IMG/VR virus record: IMGVR_UViG_2921119228_000004 | Span: 1-64,000 of that record | DNA: 64,000 bases | Strand: one strand, 5' to 3' | Source of the DNA: a virus | Lineage: Duplodnaviria > Caudoviricetes | Shown here: positions 13,657-59,070 of the stretch, one piece after another | Layout of the letters: every line of letters begins with the position of its first letter | How positions within the stretch are numbered: position 1 is the first letter of the stretch | Position numbers and translations under genes: made by a program | The notes under the pieces: model-generated | Database searches by the model: none | What the model saw: the letters and a program-made list of their open reading frames with translations, nothing else | What the model was told of the DNA's origin: nothing

Positions 13657-15741
13657 CTATGGAGTTGTTGTTCGCATTGCCAACATGATACATTCCCCAA
13701 CAAGTGCTATTTCCGCTAGTAAATAATGTCGAGTATTGTTCCACATCACACTATGTCCTGCAATTTCCGCCGTACGTAAGAAATTATTACGTACTCTCAC
13801 GTCATTGAAATATGTTGCTGCCCCCACAGCGAATGCTGTTCCGGATGGACTGAGGTTGAACAGTACCGGGCCTGCATCAATGTCAAATCCCAACCAACAC
13901 GAATAATCATGATATTCCCGTATACCAGACAATAAACCTGATTGCAAAAAATGGGATTTGAGCCTATGATATTGCTCTCTTGCAAATACTGAATCTATCT
14001 GCGTGAGGTATAGACAGTTTAATGCGGAGTACGAGCCTTTCACCGGGGCGGCTTTAAACGGTATGCCATCCTCACTCAAAAATGAGACAAGTAGGCCTGT
14101 TTCTTTGTCAAGCCATTCAGATTTAGCCTTTCGTACCCATTTACGTACCGTAGAAATATATTTTCCCTTGTTTAATTTCGAGTAATTATTCAGTGCGACA
14201 ATCGCAACAAGCATATCAGGGACATATATACATTCGCTTGGATATGTTGGTAAGTTTAGACTTTTACTTCGAAGAAGCCGACGATTCATAGTTCCGCAAA
14301 GATCATCAAACAAGTTATTATATTTATCATTTCCTCCGGCCATCTTATACTCGCTTATCATCCACGCAAGATGACTGATATATGAAATATGACTCCTGTC
14401 ACCATCCAATGTTTCCAGAGGATCCTCGCCCCAACGCTCAGCATCATATTTTCTCAACTCAAAGGAAAGTACCATCTCAATAAGATTATCTATGTTCTCT
14501 AGATTCTCTGTTTTTGTTTCGGGATAAAGTTTCGACATATTGAATAAGGCTGCCGCCAGCATTGAACAAGAATACAACGCCCACTCACCTTGAAATTGCG
14601 TTCCAATTCCTTCTGGCATTTCACACAACAACGCACGTGGTGAAGTTACTACACGATCGATCAGGAAATCCCGACGTTGAATGAGTTCCCCCTTCTCATC
14701 CTCCCATGTACCATTATCAGTACACGACCAGTAAACCCATAATATTTTGACCAATATAAATGCAACCATCACCACTGCGATTTTAATTGATTTGTGTATC
14801 AAATCAATATTGTCTCGTATAATATCTACATATTTCTCAGGCTCAACCGTTTCACGCTTGGGTTGCAAGCACGAACAGGGCAAACTAATCTTATTTTGCC
14901 ATTCATTGTCAAGATAATCCTCAAAACGGATGACGACCTTCAACAGATCATCGGATAAACGTTTCTGGCACTCTTTAATAATGTATTCAGGAATTGGATA
15001 AACACAAGCCGCTATTGCGCCAGCTATAGCACCTTGCGTATCAGCGTCACCACCGAGTGACACGGCATTTCTTATCGCATCTTCATAACTATCGGCTTCT
15101 AAAAATGCGATGATAGCCTCAGGCACGCTACCTTGGCAAGATACATCAAATTCATATCGGGGCCGAATCTCATTCAATGTACGGTTCATGTTATATTCGA
15201 ACTGATTGGTAACAAAATCTCTTATGTGTACTTTTAATTCGTCTATTTCCCCAGTCCAATGTAGCGCAATGAATATACTTGCAGCTACAGCCTGCGCTCC
15301 CTTTATAGCTTCCGGATGATTGTGTGATACTGCGGCTGTTTGTTTCGCTAAGCGCAAGCATTCATCCAAAGTCTTAGCAACAAGGCCTACCGCACTAACA
15401 CGCATAGCGGAACCATTCCCCCATGAGTTATAGGGGGTTGGATCATTACATAACCAATTGCAGAAAAGGCCACCGTAGCCAACAGCCGGATAACGGTTGC
15501 CAAATTCACACATAGTGTCTACAAGCGTGTATTCTGAGCGGGTGACATCCTCCATTAGCCATCGTGCGATAGCTAATGTCATCACCGTATCGTCTGTAAA
15601 ACAGGCACCATACGGAAATAACTCGAAGTCTTTGCTCTTGACAGAACGAAACTCATACATCGAACCTATAATATCACCAGCAATCGCTCCATAGATAGTT
15701 CTGTAAGTATTTTTCATCATGGCTAACTTCTCTCTATACAT
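13657..15741 (-). CDS. ADP-ribosylglycohydrolase domain fused via a TM helix to an uncharacterised helical domain
   Basis: GAIAGDIIGS, FTDDT, SWGNGSAMR, SHNHP, GGDADT (DraG/ARH motifs) in the first ~285 aa; hydrophobic IAVVMVAFILVKILWVYW; ~350-aa C-domain. Confidence 0.8.
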   Translation of the reverse strand: MYREKLAMMKNTYRTIYGAIAGDIIGSMYEFRSVKSKDFELFPYGACFTDDTVMTLAIARWLMEDVTRSEYTLVDTMCEFGNRYPAVGYGGLFCNWLCNDPTPYNSWGNGSAMRVSAVGLVAKTLDECLRLAKQTAAVSHNHPEAIKGAQAVAASIFIALHWTGEIDELKVHIRDFVTNQFEYNMNRTLNEIRPRYEFDVSCQGSVPEAIIAFLEADSYEDAIRNAVSLGGDADTQGAIAGAIAACVYPIPEYIIKECQKRLSDDLLKVVIRFEDYLDNEWQNKISLPCSCLQPKRETVEPEKYVDIIRDNIDLIHKSIKIAVVMVAFILVKILWVYWSCTDNGTWEDEKGELIQRRDFLIDRVVTSPRALLCEMPEGIGTQFQGEWALYSCSMLAAALFNMSKLYPETKTENLENIDNLIEMVLSFELRKYDAERWGEDPLETLDGDRSHISYISHLAWMISEYKMAGGNDKYNNLFDDLCGTMNRRLLRSKSLNLPTYPSECIYVPDMLVAIVALNNYSKLNKGKYISTVRKWVRKAKSEWLDKETGLLVSFLSEDGIPFKAAPVKGSYSALNCLYLTQIDSVFAREQYHRLKSHFLQSGLLSGIREYHDYSCWLGFDIDAGPVLFNLSPSGTAFAVGAATYFNDVRVRNNFLRTAEIAGHSVMWNNTRHYLLAEIALVGECIMLAMRTTTP

Positions 15742-21564: not shown

Positions 21565-22833
21565 CTATTTAGAGAAATGAGCACAAATAAGCTTAAAATT
21601 CGAGATTTCTTCTTTCGAAAGTCCTTCAATCCCCTTTTTCTCTATCTCACGTAAATTTCTCTCAGTAACACTATTTTCTCCTATTGACGCTTTACTAACT
21701 ACGACATTAAAATAGTCATAAAAGATGCGTGCTACAATTATCATTTTACTATATCTAAGAATCTCCTGGTCTTTCATGAATATTATTAATTTGGCCAAAT
21801 GATTCTTCGTCTTATGGACATACCGCTGTTCTCTTACGATATTAAACTCCTCCAGTTTCTCTATCAGTTTATGTACAACATCCTCGTTATAGCCGTTAAA
21901 TAGGTTGTAGAACCTATCTTCCTTATATGATGATTTATCGCCACCCTTATCAGAAACATTTGACAGTTCACTTTGAGAGTAATTCAACGGTTCTTTTTGA
22001 GAAACACCCGACGAATCATCAAGAATATCATTTTCACCATAGCTTGATGACCTATCGCTACCCTTATCAGAAACATTTGACAGTTCACTTTGAGAGTAAT
22101 TCAACGGTTCTTTTTGAGAAATATCCAACGAATTATCATGAATATCACTTTCACCATAGCTTGATGATCTATCGCTACCGTTATCAGAAACATTTGACAG
22201 TTCACTTTGAGAGTAATTCAATAGTTCATCTTGAGAATCATCTGACGAATCATCAATAATATCACTTTCACTATAAATACATCTTTGTACCCCTATCGTA
22301 TCAGAATGGGGTTTGAAGAACTTTAACCAATAGCAAAAGAACGTACCATGCCTTTTTTGGCAATCAATTAGAACATTTCGCAAATTAATATCATATCGTT
22401 CAAAAGCTTCTGTGACATCTGAGAAGAAAATTGGTATAACAAACTTTTGAAATACTTTGGAATGAAAAATGGGATGATTTAGCTGTATTTCATATAAACG
22501 CTGTAATATTTCCTCCGCATAGACCATTCTAGCTTTAGGATCCATCCCTAACAATCGAGATTTTATTGCATCTACATATTTTACACGTAATTTCTCACAA
22601 TGTTGACCAACCGCAAAAGTTAAACCCAAATTCACACAAGCCTCATTCGATCTATTGTCCGAATCATCAGAGTATGCAATATCGTTATTGATATTATTAT
22701 CAACAGAAACAAACAAATCTTTCCCATCAATGATTTTAGTTCTGGGGTCATAGATATACTCTTCCCCAAATTTATGTATAACATCTAGAATATCATCACA
22801 ATACGATCTTACATTTTCCATAAAAATAATCAA
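21565..22833 (-). CDS. Hypothetical protein with 3 x 39-aa acidic Ser-rich repeat
   Basis: 422-aa ORF abutting the integrase stop. Confidence 0.7.
   Translation of the reverse strand: MIIFMENVRSYCDDILDVIHKFGEEYIYDPRTKIIDGKDLFVSVDNNINNDIAYSDDSDNRSNEACVNLGLTFAVGQHCEKLRVKYVDAIKSRLLGMDPKARMVYAEEILQRLYEIQLNHPIFHSKVFQKFVIPIFFSDVTEAFERYDINLRNVLIDCQKRHGTFFCYWLKFFKPHSDTIGVQRCIYSESDIIDDSSDDSQDELLNYSQSELSNVSDNGSDRSSSYGESDIHDNSLDISQKEPLNYSQSELSNVSDKGSDRSSSYGENDILDDSSGVSQKEPLNYSQSELSNVSDKGGDKSSYKEDRFYNLFNGYNEDVVHKLIEKLEEFNIVREQRYVHKTKNHLAKLIIFMKDQEILRYSKMIIVARIFYDYFNVVVSKASIGENSVTERNLREIEKKGIEGLSKEEISNFKLICAHFSK
21928..22278. repeat. 117-bp in-frame tandem repeat, 3 copies
   Basis: Units start at 21928, 22045 and 22162; shared CAGAAACATTTGACAGTTCACTTTGAGAGTAATTCAA. 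Confidence 0.9.
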
Positions 22834-50137: not shown

Positions 50138-50149
50138 TTTATATGGAAA

Positions 50150-51222
50150 ATGCAAAAACATAAATTCCCCTATAATTGGAGGCTTTCAGAAGCCAAATTC
50201 ACGAAAGATAAAGGCAAAGTGTTCTCTTGTTTTGCGTGTGGTGGTGGCTCTACAATGGGTTACAAGTTAGCCGGATTTGATGTAATTGGCTGCAATGAGA
50301 TAGACGCAAAGGTTAATCGGTGTTATGTGGCTAACCACTCACCCCGATATAATTTTTTGGAAGATATACGAACATTGAGAGAGAGAGAGAGAGAGAGCTA
50401 CCGCCCGATCTTTACAATTTGGATATTTTGGACGGTTCTCCCCCATGCTCCACCTTCTCCATTGCCGGAAATCGTGAAAAGGATTGGGGTAAAGAAAAGA
50501 AATTCAGAGAGGGGCAATCTGCACAAGTTCTTGATACGCTTTTCTTTGATTTCATAGCTTTAGCAAGGGTATTACAACCAAAAGTTGTAGTAGCCGAAAA
50601 TGTGAAAGGTTTACTTATGGGAAGTGCAATAGACTATGTTAGGCGCATATATAAAGATTTTGATAACGCTGGCTATTATTGTCAGCATTTCCTTCTTGAT
50701 GCGTCAAAAATGGGTGTTCCTCAGAAAAGAGAACGGATCTTCTTTATTTGCATTAGACATGATTTAGGGATCAATTTTTTGAAGGTATCTAATCTGTTTA
50801 ACGTAGAGCCATATATAAACATGGAGTTTAACGAGGATCCTATAGTATATGGTGCTTTTGCGGATTATAAAGGAAGAGCCTATGAAGGCAGAATGAGAGA
50901 ACTTTTTGAACTCAGGGAACAAGGGGATATAGCACTATCGGAAGCCTATAAAAAACTCACTGGTAAACGTGGCTTTTTTAACCAGCAGTTCTGTTATGAA
51001 GATAGAGTTTGTTATACATTGTCTGCACACCTGGATTCATTGATACCATTTAAGCAGCCCGTCTATCTATCCACTTCTGAGGTATGTAATATATCCACGT
51101 TCCCACAAGATTATAATTTTTGTGGTTTATCGCCACACTACATTTGTGGTATGAGTGTTCCACCCGTAATGATGGCTCAGATAGCCACACGTATTTATGA
51201 ACAATGGTTGTCGAAATTATGA
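50150..51222 (+). CDS. DNA (cytosine-5) methyltransferase, frameshifted (phase OFF) at an (AG)10 tract
   Basis: Motif I FACGGGS in the first frame; GSPPC (IV), AENVKG (VI), QKRER (VIII) in the second; removing one AG gives a continuous 356-aa ORF. Confidence 0.9.
50377..50397. repeat. G(AG)10 dinucleotide microsatellite
   Basis: Read directly from the sequence; lies inside the MTase coding region. Confidence 0.95.
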
Positions 51223-52704: not shown

Positions 52705-53892
52705 ATGAGAATAATTAGAACACATTCAGGAAAGGAAGTCAAGATCTTTGCTGAAACTTTTGAGAACGAAGCATACGATCAGATTAAGAGGCTGGCTAAT
52801 TATCCTGCCTATGAAAACTCTATTATACGAATAATGCCGGATAGCCATGCTGGTAAGGGGTGTACTGTAGGTACTACAATGACAATAACCGATAAAGTAA
52901 CGCCAAACTTGGTAGGTGTTGATATTGGTTGCGGTATGCTTACTGTAGAATTGGCAGATCAATATATAGACTGTGAGAAATTGGATTCCGTTATAAGGGA
53001 AATGGTTCCCAATGGGTTTAATATACATGATACTCAAAAGGCAAATTTTGATTTTTCAAACCTACGATGTGCGAAGCAAGTAGATTTAAATAGAGCTTAT
53101 CTCTCACTCGGTACACTTGGAGGCGGTAATCATTTTATAGAGGTGGACTATTCAGAAAGAAACCATAGGTACTATTTGGTTATTCACTCTGGTAGTAGAA
53201 AGTTGGGAGGCGATGTTTGTAAACACTATCAAAATTTGGCTGCAAATACAGAAAGCGATCGGGCGATTGAAGTACGCAATACTATTGCCAGATTGAAAGC
53301 AGAAGGCAGGGAAAGGGATATTCAGGAAGCGATTAAGAATATTTCAATTCCTGGTAAGAACAAAGAGCTGGCACATCTTTCAGGTGGTGATTTTCACGAC
53401 TATATTAATGACATGGCAATAGTGCAACGTTTTGCTGTACTTAATCGTGCTACTATGGCAGCGATTATCATTAAGGGGATGGGATTTACTGAGGTAAATA
53501 GATTTGAAACCATACACAACTATATTGATTTTAGCCGTATGATCCTTAGAAAAGGTGCTGTGAGTGCTGAATTAGGCGAGAAGCTATTAATACCTATAAA
53601 TATGCGTGATGGTTCCCTTATCTGTGTTGGGAAAGGAAACCTGGACTGGAACTATTCAGCCCCACATGGAGCCGGACGTTTGATGAGTAGGAGTAAAGCA
53701 AAGGAGTTACTTAGTATGGAGGAATACCAAGAATCTATGAACGGAATATATACCACTTCTGTAAGTAGAGCGACAATAGATGAAGCCCCACAAGCGTATA
53801 AGTCTATGGAAGAGATTAAAAATGCTATCACTGATACAGTTGAGATCATTGATACGATAAAGCCAATATATAATTTTAAAGCATCAGATTAG
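52705..53892 (+). CDS. rtcB: RtcB-family RNA 3'-phosphate/5'-OH ligase
   Basis: MPDSHAGKG, VGVDIGCGM, GGGNHF, HSGSR, HNY, RKGA, PHGAGR, DEAPQAYK. Confidence 0.93.
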   Translation: MRIIRTHSGKEVKIFAETFENEAYDQIKRLANYPAYENSIIRIMPDSHAGKGCTVGTTMTITDKVTPNLVGVDIGCGMLTVELADQYIDCEKLDSVIREMVPNGFNIHDTQKANFDFSNLRCAKQVDLNRAYLSLGTLGGGNHFIEVDYSERNHRYYLVIHSGSRKLGGDVCKHYQNLAANTESDRAIEVRNTIARLKAEGRERDIQEAIKNISIPGKNKELAHLSGGDFHDYINDMAIVQRFAVLNRATMAAIIIKGMGFTEVNRFETIHNYIDFSRMILRKGAVSAELGEKLLIPINMRDGSLICVGKGNLDWNYSAPHGAGRLMSRSKAKELLSMEEYQESMNGIYTTSVSRATIDEAPQAYKSMEEIKNAITDTVEIIDTIKPIYNFKASD

Positions 53893-53905: not shown

Positions 53906-54163
53906 ATGGAATGGATTATGAAGTTACCGAAAGTTATTCATGTAGAATTGAGAGAGCCGTACAATGGAAAAAGACACTTCTATTTTGGATCTATTGCTGC
54001 GATCTTTGACGAGCTTTCAGAGGAACAAATAGGTATCAAGAAAGAAAGTCTTTGGAATGTAGATCTAAGTCGGGTTGAGTATCAAAACAAGTATTGTACA
54101 ATCCGTATGGGCGTGCTTATAAGGAAGAAAACATTTAGAGGTAATACTAAAATTGGAGGTTAA
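53906..54163 (+). CDS. Hypothetical protein
   Basis: 85 aa between rtcB and the ARH gene. Confidence 0.6.
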   Translation: MEWIMKLPKVIHVELREPYNGKRHFYFGSIAAIFDELSEEQIGIKKESLWNVDLSRVEYQNKYCTIRMGVLIRKKTFRGNTKIGG

Positions 54164-54929
54164 TATGTTAGGTGCAATAATAGGCGATATTGTAGGCTCA
54201 CGGTTTGAGTTTAACAATACAGATAACTATAACTTTGAGTTGTTTACGGAAGAAAGCACTTTTACAGATGATACGATTTGTACTATTGCTATTGCGGACG
54301 CTATCAACAATGGGGAACACTACGAAGATACGTTACTGAAATGGTGTAGAAAATATCCAAACCCTAAAGGAGCATACGGAAGCAGCTTTGCACGTTGGAT
54401 AGCCTCAGATACACCACAACCATATAATAGCTTCGGTAACGGTTCTGCAATGAGGGTTAGCCCCGTAGCTTGGTTCTTTGACGACTTATATAGAGTGAAG
54501 AAAGAAGCGGAAGAAACCGCTATCGTAACCCATAACCACCCGGAAGGCATAAAAGGAGCTGTAGCGATTGCGCACGCTATTTACTATTTGCGTACTACCA
54601 AAAACCTATCCGGGCTTGAAAACGAAATGCAAACGTACTATCCTATGTTTATGATCGGAAACTATTACTCTGGAGTATTTGATGAAACTTGCCAGGGAAC
54701 TGTACCTATTTGCCTGAAAATTATCATTTCCAGTAATTCTTTTGAGGATGCAATAAGGAAGGCTATTTCGTGGGGAGGTGATAGCGACACTATCGGTGCT
54801 ATTGTAGGATCTATGGCAGCAGCTATCTATGAGATCCCTAAAGAAATAGTAGATCATGTATTCAATTTGTTGCCTATTGATATGCTTGATGTTATAGGTA
54901 ACTTCTATCATAACTTAAACAATAAATAA
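54153..54929 (+). CDS. ADP-ribosylglycohydrolase (DraG/ARH family)
   Basis: GAIIGDIVGS, FTDDT, SFGNGSAMR, THNHP, GGDSDT. Confidence 0.9.
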   Translation: MEVNMLGAIIGDIVGSRFEFNNTDNYNFELFTEESTFTDDTICTIAIADAINNGEHYEDTLLKWCRKYPNPKGAYGSSFARWIASDTPQPYNSFGNGSAMRVSPVAWFFDDLYRVKKEAEETAIVTHNHPEGIKGAVAIAHAIYYLRTTKNLSGLENEMQTYYPMFMIGNYYSGVFDETCQGTVPICLKIIISSNSFEDAIRKAISWGGDSDTIGAIVGSMAAAIYEIPKEIVDHVFNLLPIDMLDVIGNFYHNLNNK

Positions 54930-56585: not shown

Positions 56586-56608
56586 AAGGTAGCTCAATAG
56601 GCTACCTT
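56586..56608. terminator. Hairpin between convergent genes
   Basis: AAGGTAGC/GCTACCTT 8-bp stem. Confidence 0.45.
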
Positions 56609-59070
56609 TATATTTCTTCCAGCTCAACTACCCAGCCTTTTCCAAAGCCGTATTTTCGTGTTTCTTCCTGATAAACATTCAGCACCTTAAAACGGGATCC
56701 GGCACGAAACACAATTTCATCTTCACTTGCATAATGGGAAATGGCTTTTACATCTACACCCTTCTTGCTTTTGATAACCAGCATTAGGTTATCTCCAAAG
56801 ATAGCAGTTCTATCAATATTGGTAGTAGAGGACATGAAGGCTTTGTTTACATAGGGCTGCCCGGATGATAGACACGCTTTCATTTCTTGAATATACTTAT
56901 CCAGCTTCATTGCGTCAAAGCTGATCCCTGAGAATACAGTACCATTATAGCGAGGCATTTTTTCTAAGGCAGCATTACAAGCCGGATAATATTTTTGGCA
57001 TAATCCCCCATAATCTTGTATTTTGCCAAAGTACGGATCTACAATACCATAACCGTAATTATTACACCACTTAGAGCCGTATGTATAACGGTTTATCAAA
57101 GCAAGTTCATCTACGGATATACCCGTTTTTTTGCTATAACGCTCCATTGCTCCAGCTTCACTACTATAGTTCTGCCAACGTCCACCGATGGCGTTATTAG
57201 CACTATGATTAACTGGCGCATTTATATACTCTTCCAGTGCTTTTTTTGCCAGTTCCTCAGTTTCTCCATTCAGTTTAACCAACTTGCCTTGTTTTGATAC
57301 ATACTTTAAAGCCAACTCCTTTTTATAATCAGCAAGCCGGACATAACAAGCACTTACTTCACTATTCCACTGACTGCCGTATAGATCCATAGCCTTATCA
57401 TATTCAGATTGGAGCCTTGCTATTTCCAGCTTTTCTTTTTCTGTTGCGTAAAGATCCAAAGTGGATCCGTCCGCACCTTGTTTAACCAGCTTTGCGAGCC
57501 GAGCCTTTTCTATCTCTTGTATTTTGGCAGTCGCTTTTGCTGTCAAGGCTTGTATCTCATTTGCAGTTGCTTCATTGGCTATAGCCTCATTCAGTTCTGC
57601 CAGAACCGAATTTAACGGTTTACTCTTGCTTTTATAGTTCAAAATAGGCTTGGCAGCATTTACGGCTTGCTGGTATTGAAATTTTGCCTCAACTATAGCC
57701 AGCTCTTTTTTAAGCATTTTCACCATTTCGGGAGAAGTCGGAAATTTATTCTTTTCCTCAACCCAATTAGCCTCAAACTTTAGCTTCTTGATTTGGTACT
57801 CCAAATCACCAGTAGAGATTTTGGCTTTGAATGAATCGAAAGCCTCATATAGCTTTTGTACGTTTTCTTCCCCATATTGAGCAACCAGCCCTTTGTAGTG
57901 TTTTTGCTCAGGTGTGAGAGGATGCAAGATTTCTTCTATATCCGTATAGTTATCCTTGACGAAATAGGGTAGAGTGCCTTTTGTTTTGGCTTCATTCATG
58001 CGATCTTCGTTATCCTTTACCCATTGCACAAATTCATCTGAAAACTCCGTTATTTGCCCTTTCTTGCTTATTTCTTCATCTTCTCCAGCCAGGATCTTGT
58101 TAAGCATATCCTCTATATCATCTTCACCAGCTAAAATAGGAATCATGTAGCACCGACAATTCGGATGCCAACCAGTCCATTTAAACGTTTTGGGATATTT
58201 GCCAGCAAGCTCATCGCAAATATCATGGCATGGGTGGTTGTTTGACAGCTTGATTTCATAGCCAATTATAAAATCTAATTGCCCCCATCGTTCAAAATCA
58301 GCAGTTCTGTAGGCTATATTGGTTTCTGTACGTGCCAAACGTTGGGCATTACGGTATGAAGATCTATATACACCACGTCCAGGATGATATTTCTTTGGGT
58401 TATCATCTACCCATTTATAACTTTCGGTTTCTTTGTCATATACCCTACGTTTCCATACACGACCATACACAGTATTTCCGTTTTCATCCTCACCGACCTT
58501 TATTCTGAATCTTCTGTAAAAGCGATCAGGATCTTGTAGGTAGGTCTGTATTTTGGAAGCTAACTTGTTGGCTCCTGTACCCTCTCCTATAGCCAAATCC
58601 AAGCAGTTTTCAAGCTCTTCTTTAAATTGTCCTGTGTACCTCCATACCTTTTGCGATAGGCTTAGCCCTTCTTCTCCAGTTTTCCGAGCAAAGAAAGCGT
58701 CCATAGCCTCCATATTGCGCTTAAAGAATCGGGCAAAGTGGTTATCATTGATAGAGTTTTCACCGAACACACTTTTTACCAGCTCATCGTTATGTTGGTT
58801 GGAAAGCAGCCATTCATTTTGCACGTCATTCCTTATTTCTTGATACAAACGGCTGTACATTTCTCTAAATATGGCTGTAGCCTCATCACTATAGCCATAT
58901 TCGGAGAAAGAGAACGGTTTACCTTCTTCCAACTCCGTACCTTTTACCATGTTAATAATCTGGAGTAAGTAGTTTTGATAAATCGCACGTACATTAGCTG
59001 CGTACCCTTCTGTACGTTTAAACAGCTCTTTTTGTAACTGCGTGGAATTGACGTATTTAGTTTTTGCCAT
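56608..59070 (-). CDS. MuF-like minor head protein with C-terminal ADP-ribosyltransferase-like domain
   Basis: RLARTET...CDELAGKYP...HPNCRC MuF signature; C-terminal FMSST and EDEIVF...FKV. Confidence 0.8.
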   Translation of the reverse strand: MAKTKYVNSTQLQKELFKRTEGYAANVRAIYQNYLLQIINMVKGTELEEGKPFSFSEYGYSDEATAIFREMYSRLYQEIRNDVQNEWLLSNQHNDELVKSVFGENSINDNHFARFFKRNMEAMDAFFARKTGEEGLSLSQKVWRYTGQFKEELENCLDLAIGEGTGANKLASKIQTYLQDPDRFYRRFRIKVGEDENGNTVYGRVWKRRVYDKETESYKWVDDNPKKYHPGRGVYRSSYRNAQRLARTETNIAYRTADFERWGQLDFIIGYEIKLSNNHPCHDICDELAGKYPKTFKWTGWHPNCRCYMIPILAGEDDIEDMLNKILAGEDEEISKKGQITEFSDEFVQWVKDNEDRMNEAKTKGTLPYFVKDNYTDIEEILHPLTPEQKHYKGLVAQYGEENVQKLYEAFDSFKAKISTGDLEYQIKKLKFEANWVEEKNKFPTSPEMVKMLKKELAIVEAKFQYQQAVNAAKPILNYKSKSKPLNSVLAELNEAIANEATANEIQALTAKATAKIQEIEKARLAKLVKQGADGSTLDLYATEKEKLEIARLQSEYDKAMDLYGSQWNSEVSACYVRLADYKKELALKYVSKQGKLVKLNGETEELAKKALEEYINAPVNHSANNAIGGRWQNYSSEAGAMERYSKKTGISVDELALINRYTYGSKWCNNYGYGIVDPYFGKIQDYGGLCQKYYPACNAALEKMPRYNGTVFSGISFDAMKLDKYIQEMKACLSSGQPYVNKAFMSSTTNIDRTAIFGDNLMLVIKSKKGVDVKAISHYASEDEIVFRAGSRFKVLNVYQEETRKYGFGKGWVVELEEI

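Follow-up and report, generated by a model that had tools for sequence, protein, structure and literature searches.

The methyltransferase gene at positions 50150-51222 of the window, i.e., the whole 64,000-nucleotide stretch analysed here, contains a run of AG dinucleotides that divides it between two reading frames. The window corresponds to bases 1-64,000 of a provirus record in IMG/VR that is 77,875 bases long, and it includes siphovirus tape measure, portal and terminase genes. The locus is probably best explained as an orphan cytosine-C5 methyltransferase gene of a temperate Bacteroides siphovirus equipped with a built-in simple-sequence ON/OFF contingency switch. The enzyme would thus very probably be switched ON and OFF at random, and the copy in the window, which has 10 AG units, is OFF. 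The comparison of related sequences fits a hypermutable contingency locus in a gene under purifying selection, and it does not agree with a mistake in assembly, with gene decay or with programmed frameshifting of an obligatory kind.

A dinucleotide repeat within a methyltransferase gene

The repeat can be read directly from the letters of the window as G(AG)10 at positions 50377-50397, and Tandem Repeats Finder describes it as a tract of period 2 with 10.5 copies and 100% matches. Shuffling the window 100 times with its dinucleotide counts preserved gives an expectation of 0.00 for a 12-base AG word. In addition, a script run over the whole provirus returned the AG tract alone as a dinucleotide tract of at least five units, both in the window and in all 77,875 bases. 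The features of the gene are the following:

50150..50376, plus strand: N-terminal part of the methyltransferase gene in frame 0, with the ATG at 50150 (open reading frame list, PF00145 profile, alignment A1)
50150..50376, plus strand: motifs of the N-terminal part, namely motif I FSCFACGGGS, motif II NEID and motif III EDIR (alignment A1)
50377..50397, plus strand: G(AG)10 simple-sequence repeat, the putative switch (direct reading, Tandem Repeats Finder, shuffles, lengths of homologous alleles)
50398..51222, plus strand: C-terminal part, read with an offset of +2 from the frame of the start codon, with motifs IV-X, the target-recognition region and the stop codon at 51220-51222
50437..50448, plus strand: catalytic motif IV Ser-Pro-Pro-Cys, whose Cys is encoded by TGC at 50446-50448; as it lies downstream of the tract, the motif is missing from the OFF product
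50555..50557, plus strand: premature stop of the present 10-unit (OFF) state (open reading frame 50150..50557, translation)
51148..51165, plus strand: motif X Gly-Met-Ser-Val-Pro-Pro, with the Met codon at 51151-51153 (HMMER alignment to 8yf3)

Both parts of the gene are recognized by the Pfam profile PF00145, that of C5 cytosine-specific DNA methylases. In particular, the N-terminal part matches profile positions 2-56 (window 50150-50395, E=1e-4, 22.3 bits with a cut-off of 22) and the C-terminal part matches positions 61-323 (window 50398-51219, E=3e-34, 119.2 bits). Together, the two parts extend over positions 2-323 of 324 and pass the family cut-off, and the tract falls in the gap that separates positions 56 and 61 of the profile. 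In the 10-unit state, the frame opened by the ATG at 50150 ends at 50557, yielding a product of 135 amino acids that does not contain the catalytic Cys. In view of the established mechanism of C5 methyltransferases, this OFF product, which comprises motifs I-III and has no nucleophile, should be inactive. Read in frame, the tract encodes (Arg-Glu)n, and 6, 9, 12 or 15 units restore the frame. Indeed, a natural locus with 9 units (L004/L013) encodes a continuous protein of 356 amino acids that contains ...LRERERELPPDLYNLDILDGSPPC.... The catalytic sequence GSPPC, found at 50434-50448 of the window, is invariant in 123 of 125 homologous loci and in alignment A1.

A preliminary description of the locus, drawn from the letters alone, had placed G(AG)10 at 50377-50397 between motif I and the catalytic Pro-Cys motif, had regarded it as the only long dinucleotide tract of the window, and had predicted a stop at 50557 with 10 units and a 356-amino acid enzyme with 9 units. 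The position is borne out by direct reading and Tandem Repeats Finder, the singularity of the tract holds also across the whole provirus, the stop is confirmed by the open reading frame list and its translation, and the full-length enzyme exists as a natural allele, so that the description is right in every particular that could be checked.

Protein family, fold and predicted chemistry

In the 9-unit allele, the sequences FSCFACGGGS (motif I, the FxGxG cofactor loop), GSPPCSTFS (motif IV, with the Pro-Cys nucleophile), AENVKG (motif VI, ENV) and PQKRERIFF (motif VIII, QxRxR) are all invariant in alignment A1. Motif X differs from the classical Gly-Asn-(Ala/Ser)-Val, the Asn of which lies beside the methyl group being transferred, as it reads Gly-Met-Ser-Val-Pro-Pro, with Met taking the place of Asn and the remainder being kept. 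This Met is present in 116 of the 116 loci that are readable at this position among 125 homologous ones, down to about 41% identity, and the HMMER alignment to 8yf3 places it opposite Arg350 of SpCmoX, the counterpart of Asn304 of M.HhaI.

An AlphaFold2 model of the natural 9-unit allele (pLDDT 89, pTM 0.90) was compared with solved structures by Foldseek, which recognized a complete two-domain C5-methyltransferase fold, with 8yf3 at rank 1 and M.HhaI and M.HaeIII among the top matches (TM-scores of 0.67-0.74 to 8yf3 and M.HhaI). In the model, the Arg-Glu residues 77-82 make up the end of a helix (residues 73-78) and the loop before the motif IV strand. Homologs devoid of the tract have a 5-residue K/R/D-rich linker at the same position of alignment A1. 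The tract falls in the part of the gene that encodes a short, length-tolerant charged linker between motif III and the catalytic Pro-Cys motif.

The closest solved structure by sequence is 8YF3 (E=1e-46, full length), which corresponds to SpCmoX of Synechococcus phage S-B43, an enzyme that transfers a carboxymethyl group from Cx-SAM to the C5 of cytosine at GC sites (PMC12783734). CmoX enzymes are defined by an SPPC motif together with an Arg (Arg350) that replaces Asn304 of M.HhaI; Arg350 binds the carboxymethyl group of Cx-SAM, and CmoX is usually accompanied by a phage CmoA (PMC12783734). The enzyme described here resembles SpCmoX, its nearest solved relative by both sequence and fold, in being encoded by a phage and in carrying the unusual Ser-Pro-Pro-Cys motif IV. 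Unlike SpCmoX, which has no repeat tract, it has Met in place of the diagnostic Arg350, and a search for CmoA (TIGR00740) gave no match within the 77.9-kb provirus. Membership in CmoX was considered and rejected on these grounds. SAM-dependent methylation is the most likely chemistry, and 5mC is a likely, though not a certain, product. The GC specificity of SpCmoX was also considered and set aside, since the similarity in the target-recognition region is too low for a target to be transferred.

Genomic neighbourhood

The gene sits within a plus-strand gene block, where its neighbours are small open reading frames of unknown function, a sigma-factor-like open reading frame, RtcB and an ADP-ribosylglycohydrolase. 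The adjacent open reading frames of 143, 68, 66 and 174 amino acids either have no match or fall into PHROG families of unknown function. No nuclease family was matched among the neighbours of the methyltransferase, where the small open reading frames that have no match could include an unrecognised nuclease. In keeping with the earlier claim that a cognate restriction gene is not adjacent, none can be recognized among the neighbours and, with the small open reading frames reserved as possible nucleases, the enzyme is best called an orphan methyltransferase.

Tract length among related loci

Homologous loci were obtained from an IMG/VR scan (80 loci), from species-representative genomes (45 loci) and from metagenome contigs by a DNA-pattern scan (63 loci), with two loci from the latter (L186 and L191) being left out as unrelated sequences. 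The hosts named among the genome matches are Bacteroides, including B. acidifaciens DSM 15896 and several Bacteroides MAGs, and the metagenome contigs with a stated source come from the human gut. Among isolated relatives, Bacteroides phage Versailles (ON453897) carries the same gene with (AG)4 and the same frame offset as the window; in LoVEphage (MW660583) the homologous gene is intact and the tract is absent. The gene neighbours differ in these two phages.

In 106 homologous alleles from phages, genomes and metagenome contigs, the window and Versailles included, the tract ranges from 4 to 17 units. The reading frame is open across the tract in 43 alleles, and the two shifted frames account for 30 and 33 alleles. 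Natural in-frame alleles with 6, 9, 12 and 15 units were found, giving linkers of (Arg-Glu)2-5, and the tract is uninterrupted in 102 of 104 tract-bearing alleles.

The variation in length can be followed on haplotypes, defined by identity over the 228 bases that precede the tract and the 400 bases that follow it. Of the 13 haplotypes that were seen more than once, 11 come with several tract lengths; there are, for instance, 21 alleles with 5-13 units on one haplotype and 13 alleles with 7-13 units on another. A haplotype with 4 units (3 alleles) has no length variation, as expected of a short tract. Similarly, loci that are at most 2 bases apart over 1.3-3.7 kb have 8, 9, 9, 10, 11 and 12 units, or 10 versus 13 units. 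Judging from these comparisons, the tract mutates far faster than its surroundings. The in-frame and out-of-frame alleles that the preliminary description anticipated among homologs are thus both present, including on identical haplotypes.

Selection on the gene and alternative readings

The N-terminal part of the gene is open in all alleles and the C-terminal part is intact in 83 of the 86 complete homologous genes. Further lesions affect three of the 86 (L064, L155 and L180), and only that of L064 is credible; L155 and L180 were evaluated as pseudogenes and rejected, as they contain scattered 1-base indels throughout, read as assembly errors (L155 has 1.7x coverage). Between three tract-bearing clades, dN/dS is 0.05-0.2 with dS being saturated, which points to purifying selection on the protein throughout the existence of the tract. 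The combination of a hypermutable tract, a gene under selection and the common occurrence of both states represents the signature of a contingency locus.

The same alleles could be read as an unstable microsatellite that is neutral and sits in an accessory gene the phage can do without, in which case slippage would inactivate the enzyme to no benefit and lineages would drift. Indeed, the in-frame share is indistinguishable from the expected 1/3 (43/106, p=0.12; 20/64 after dereplication) and matches unselected slippage, so that the data are silent on which state is favoured. Furthermore, the Versailles lineage with its 4 units is out of frame in three records, and yet Versailles is an inducible prophage (PMC10197239), which makes the enzyme dispensable for the phage, at least there. 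However, neutrality is difficult to reconcile with dN/dS values that reflect long-term selection for the protein between tract-bearing clades, with the scarcity of credible second lesions (1 in 86 complete genes, of which about 60% are out of frame), and with a tract that has stayed pure in 102 of 104 alleles while synonymous sites became saturated. In addition, the one further long repeat of the provirus is likewise found within a methyltransferase gene and, as methyltransferase genes account for about 3% of the genome, the chance of both repeats falling there can be roughly estimated as about 1 in 1000. Neutral drift is thus an unlikely account of the locus, and a contingency switch is the preferred one.

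A second alternative is programmed recoding, whereby ribosomal -1/+2 frameshifting or RNA-polymerase slippage on the AG run would let out-of-frame alleles make full-length enzyme all the same, and the tract would tune the amount of enzyme instead of turning it off. Long repeats can cause some transcriptional slippage, mainly in the case of homopolymers, and the frame offset shared by the window (10 units) and Versailles (4 units) had suggested an obligatory programmed frameshift. The latter is ruled out by the 106 alleles, in which all three frames occur at similar frequency, 43 alleles are simply in frame and no frame relation is conserved. Moreover, AGAGAG does not provide an X XXY YYZ slippery heptamer, and recoding is overall very unlikely when compared with a contingency switch.

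Repeats are error-prone in library PCR and assembly, and the frameshift might accordingly be a sequencing or assembly artefact hiding a true tract of 9 units. Contigs of four sequencing runs have 10 units at the locus, at a depth of 18-166 and with no gaps or loose ends, although these contigs possibly derive from the source strain, so that they confirm the assembly and do not count as independent samples, and they are assembled contigs, in which minority lengths are invisible. The preliminary description had named a uniform count of 9 units in the reads as the outcome that would reveal an assembly error, and the four runs give 10. A tract of 21 bases is well within a read, and lengths of 4-17 units in more than 100 independent contigs cannot be stutter, which makes an artefact highly improbable. 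Equally hard to credit is an enzyme in two pieces, in which the N-terminal fragment with motifs I-III would be active together with a C-terminal fragment translated anew from the TTG that begins the open reading frame 50419..51222, so that OFF would not be off: split C5 methyltransferases such as M.AquI do exist, but the known natural split is elsewhere, between motifs VIII and IX, single-chain in-frame alleles are common, position 50419 is unmarked as a start, and the N fragment would bear a 53-residue out-of-frame tail.

A model for the proposed switch

With a contingency switch as the preferred reading, the following sequence of events can be proposed. As the phage or prophage replicates, slipped-strand mispairing would add or remove AG units, as is known of such repeats, and each unit gained or lost would shift the frame by 2 bases. 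Natural alleles show that genes with 6, 9, 12 or 15 units encode the full enzyme with an (Arg-Glu)2-5 linker, whereas with other numbers of units translation ends soon after the tract, and a product devoid of the catalytic cysteine is not expected to be active. As a result, the lysogen population and the phage progeny would be a mixture of genomes modified and unmodified at the target of the enzyme. Such a mixture may hedge between hosts with restriction enzymes that are blocked by modification and hosts with nucleases that attack modified DNA. The methylation of the lysogen chromosome might also change.

A second repeat in a Dam-type gene

Apart from the AG tract, the 77.9-kb provirus has one long simple repeat, a C11 run that lies outside the window (68581-68591 of the record) and reads G11 on the coding strand. 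It exactly separates two open reading frames, which match the PF05869 (Dam) profile at positions 5-59 and 62-144 and which G9 or G12 would join. In relatives, the run goes from G6 to G12, with the in-frame G9 being the commonest, and some identical haplotypes differ in its length (8/9, 8/12 and 9/10). The variation of the poly-G run is weaker evidence than that of the AG tract, since short-read assemblies are less reliable for poly-G than for dinucleotide lengths. A Dam-type adenine methyltransferase with its own poly-G switch, in combination with the AG switch, would make up to four modification states possible. Indeed, all four ON/OFF combinations were seen in contigs that carry both methyltransferase genes.

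A more speculative picture, which we put forward only tentatively, is that of a two-switch, four-state lottery in temperate Bacteroides phages, where the (AG)n cytosine enzyme and the poly-G adenine enzyme would flip independently and each burst and each lysogen population would hold DNA in all modification combinations, pre-adapted to hosts with different restriction or modification-dependent defences. In the same picture, the cytosine enzyme would belong to a large phage family, marked by SPPC and the invariant motif X Met and sister to CmoX, and the group that it transfers may be other than a plain methyl.

Relation to known systems

Switching of methyltransferases by intragenic repeats is textbook as a mechanism; the literature searched gave no instance of it in temperate phages of Bacteroides. 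A close parallel is M.HpyAVIB of Helicobacter pylori, a solitary C5-cytosine methyltransferase with an intragenic AG repeat of 4-5 units (PMC3411764). In both cases, an AG repeat in the coding sequence of an orphan C5 enzyme shifts the frame, and in-frame and truncated alleles exist among strains. Unlike M.HpyAVIB, which is chromosomal and belongs to a pathogen, the gene described here is carried by a temperate gut Bacteroides phage, its tract has 4-17 units and varies in length on identical haplotypes, and the enzyme is of a different subfamily (SPPC/GMSVPP).

Intragenic repeats also underlie phasevarions, which depend on phase-variable Type III mod and Type I hsd genes of Haemophilus, Neisseria, Moraxella and Streptococcus suis (PMC5909438, PMC7383803), and the Type III mod gene of M.MmyCI of Mycoplasma mycoides, which contains 12 AG units (PMC3498834). 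There, the repeat leads to random ON/OFF switching and to two methylation states per population. These are N6-adenine enzymes of chromosomal restriction-modification systems with demonstrated regulons, while the present gene encodes an orphan cytosine-C5 homolog on a phage. A prophage-borne gene with an intragenic simple-sequence repeat has a precedent in neuO of the Escherichia coli K1 prophage CUS-3, described as a 'mobile contingency locus' (PMC3046976, PMC13001214). neuO encodes a capsule O-acetyltransferase, has heptanucleotide repeats and alters the host surface, in contrast to a DNA-modifying enzyme that could act on the phage's own DNA.

At least one methyltransferase gene is present in most prophages of the Bacteroides fragilis group, and phages exchange such genes with one another (Tisza et al. 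2023, PMC10333322). The setting of these orphan methyltransferases is the same as that of the gene analysed here, and the passages retrieved by keyword from that study describe no repeat-mediated switching. In a recent review on phase variation, only inversion systems are reported for Bacteroides (PMC11868660), and a 2026 review on prokaryotic methyltransferases treats phage-encoded and phase-variable enzymes as separate items (PMC13076061). Neither a repeat-switched phage methyltransferase in Bacteroides nor this locus was described in the literature searched, the coverage of which is incomplete, so that absence is no proof.

Significance

Repeat-driven ON/OFF switching of methyltransferases has been well studied in a few host-adapted pathogens, where it generates epigenetically distinct subpopulations. 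Bacteroides is a dominant genus of the gut, and the phase variation known there occurs by DNA inversion. If the proposed switch is real, the device would have moved to a mobile element able to carry it between strains, and it would be applied to the DNA of the phage itself, the modification of which determines the hosts that are open to infection. The switch would then help explain strain-specific methylation patterns in Bacteroides, and bet-hedging by viruses against restriction and anti-modification defences could be tested on a concrete case. Genes of this kind are annotated as truncated or hypothetical and would be missed when methylomes are matched to genes; the GenBank record of Versailles, for instance, annotates the C-terminal piece of the gene only.

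Start region and motif X of the cytosine methyltransferase gene

Immediately 5' of the start codon, positions 50143-50155 of the window read ATGGAAAATG. The translation of several near-identical alleles begins with Met-Glu-Met-Gln, which implies that these alleles have one A fewer and an in-frame ATG upstream; judging from the sequence, an A-run differing by a single base would alter which ATG can start the gene. At the other end of the protein lies the following motif:

51148-51165 (window): motif X, Gly-Met-Ser-Val-Pro-Pro

The same six residues form motif X in all homologs, among the 125 loci compared (L004-L128), in which this motif can be read. Its Met occupies the position of Asn304 in M.HhaI and of Arg350 in the carboxymethyltransferase SpCmoX, beside the transferred group. 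In the literature searched, no characterisation was found of the large phage family that combines the SPPC form of motif IV with the motif X Met.

Mosaic alleles and the Versailles lineage

Four IMG/VR contigs (L054, L055, L057 and L059) carry mosaic methyltransferase alleles: their N-terminal part is practically the one found in the window's clade, but the linker is devoid of the AG tract and the target-recognition region is different in parts. This mixture of a clade-like N-terminal part with a tract-less linker suggests recombination between tract-bearing and tract-less genes. In Bacteroides phage Versailles (ON453897; locus L002, 3001-4061) the gene is present in full, with an (AG)4 tract that puts it out of frame, the "DNA methyltransferase" annotated in the GenBank record corresponding to the C-terminal 264 codons only. 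Since two more records of this lineage (L085 and L146) likewise carry 4 units, the Versailles allele looks like a stable OFF allele.

A poly-G run in a Dam-type methyltransferase gene

Apart from the AG tract, the 77.9-kb provirus contains a single further long simple repeat, a G11 run that breaks a Dam-type N6-adenine methyltransferase (PF05869) into two halves, outside the window on the provirus segment L192:

68581-68591 of the provirus record (L192 4581-4591), minus strand: G11, which reads as C11 on the plus strand
L192 4578-4901, minus strand: ORF matching PF05869 profile positions 5-59
L192 4273-4593, minus strand: ORF matching PF05869 profile positions 62-144

The halves would be joined by G9 or G12, and in the Dam-type gene of relatives the run ranges from G6 to G12 and is mostly G9, which is in frame. 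Adjoining this gene, also outside the window, is a third, small methyltransferase-like ORF (L192 3310-3813, minus strand, 167 aa), which has a DPPYS motif, a weak PF10237 match and no simple repeat.

Other features of the phage

21928-22275 (window): 117-base tandem repeat, 3.0 copies, 90% identity (Tandem Repeats Finder)
52705-53892, 54153-54929, 56608-59070 and 13657-15741 (window): four regions that between them encode an RtcB RNA ligase, two ADP-ribosylglycohydrolase-domain proteins and an 820-aa protein

The tandem repeat sits within a minus-strand ORF (21565-22833). The phage also encodes, within the window, the RtcB RNA ligase and both ADP-ribosylglycohydrolase-domain proteins, and the 820-aa protein, whose gene adjoins the portal gene, has an ADP-ribosyltransferase-like domain at its C-terminal end.
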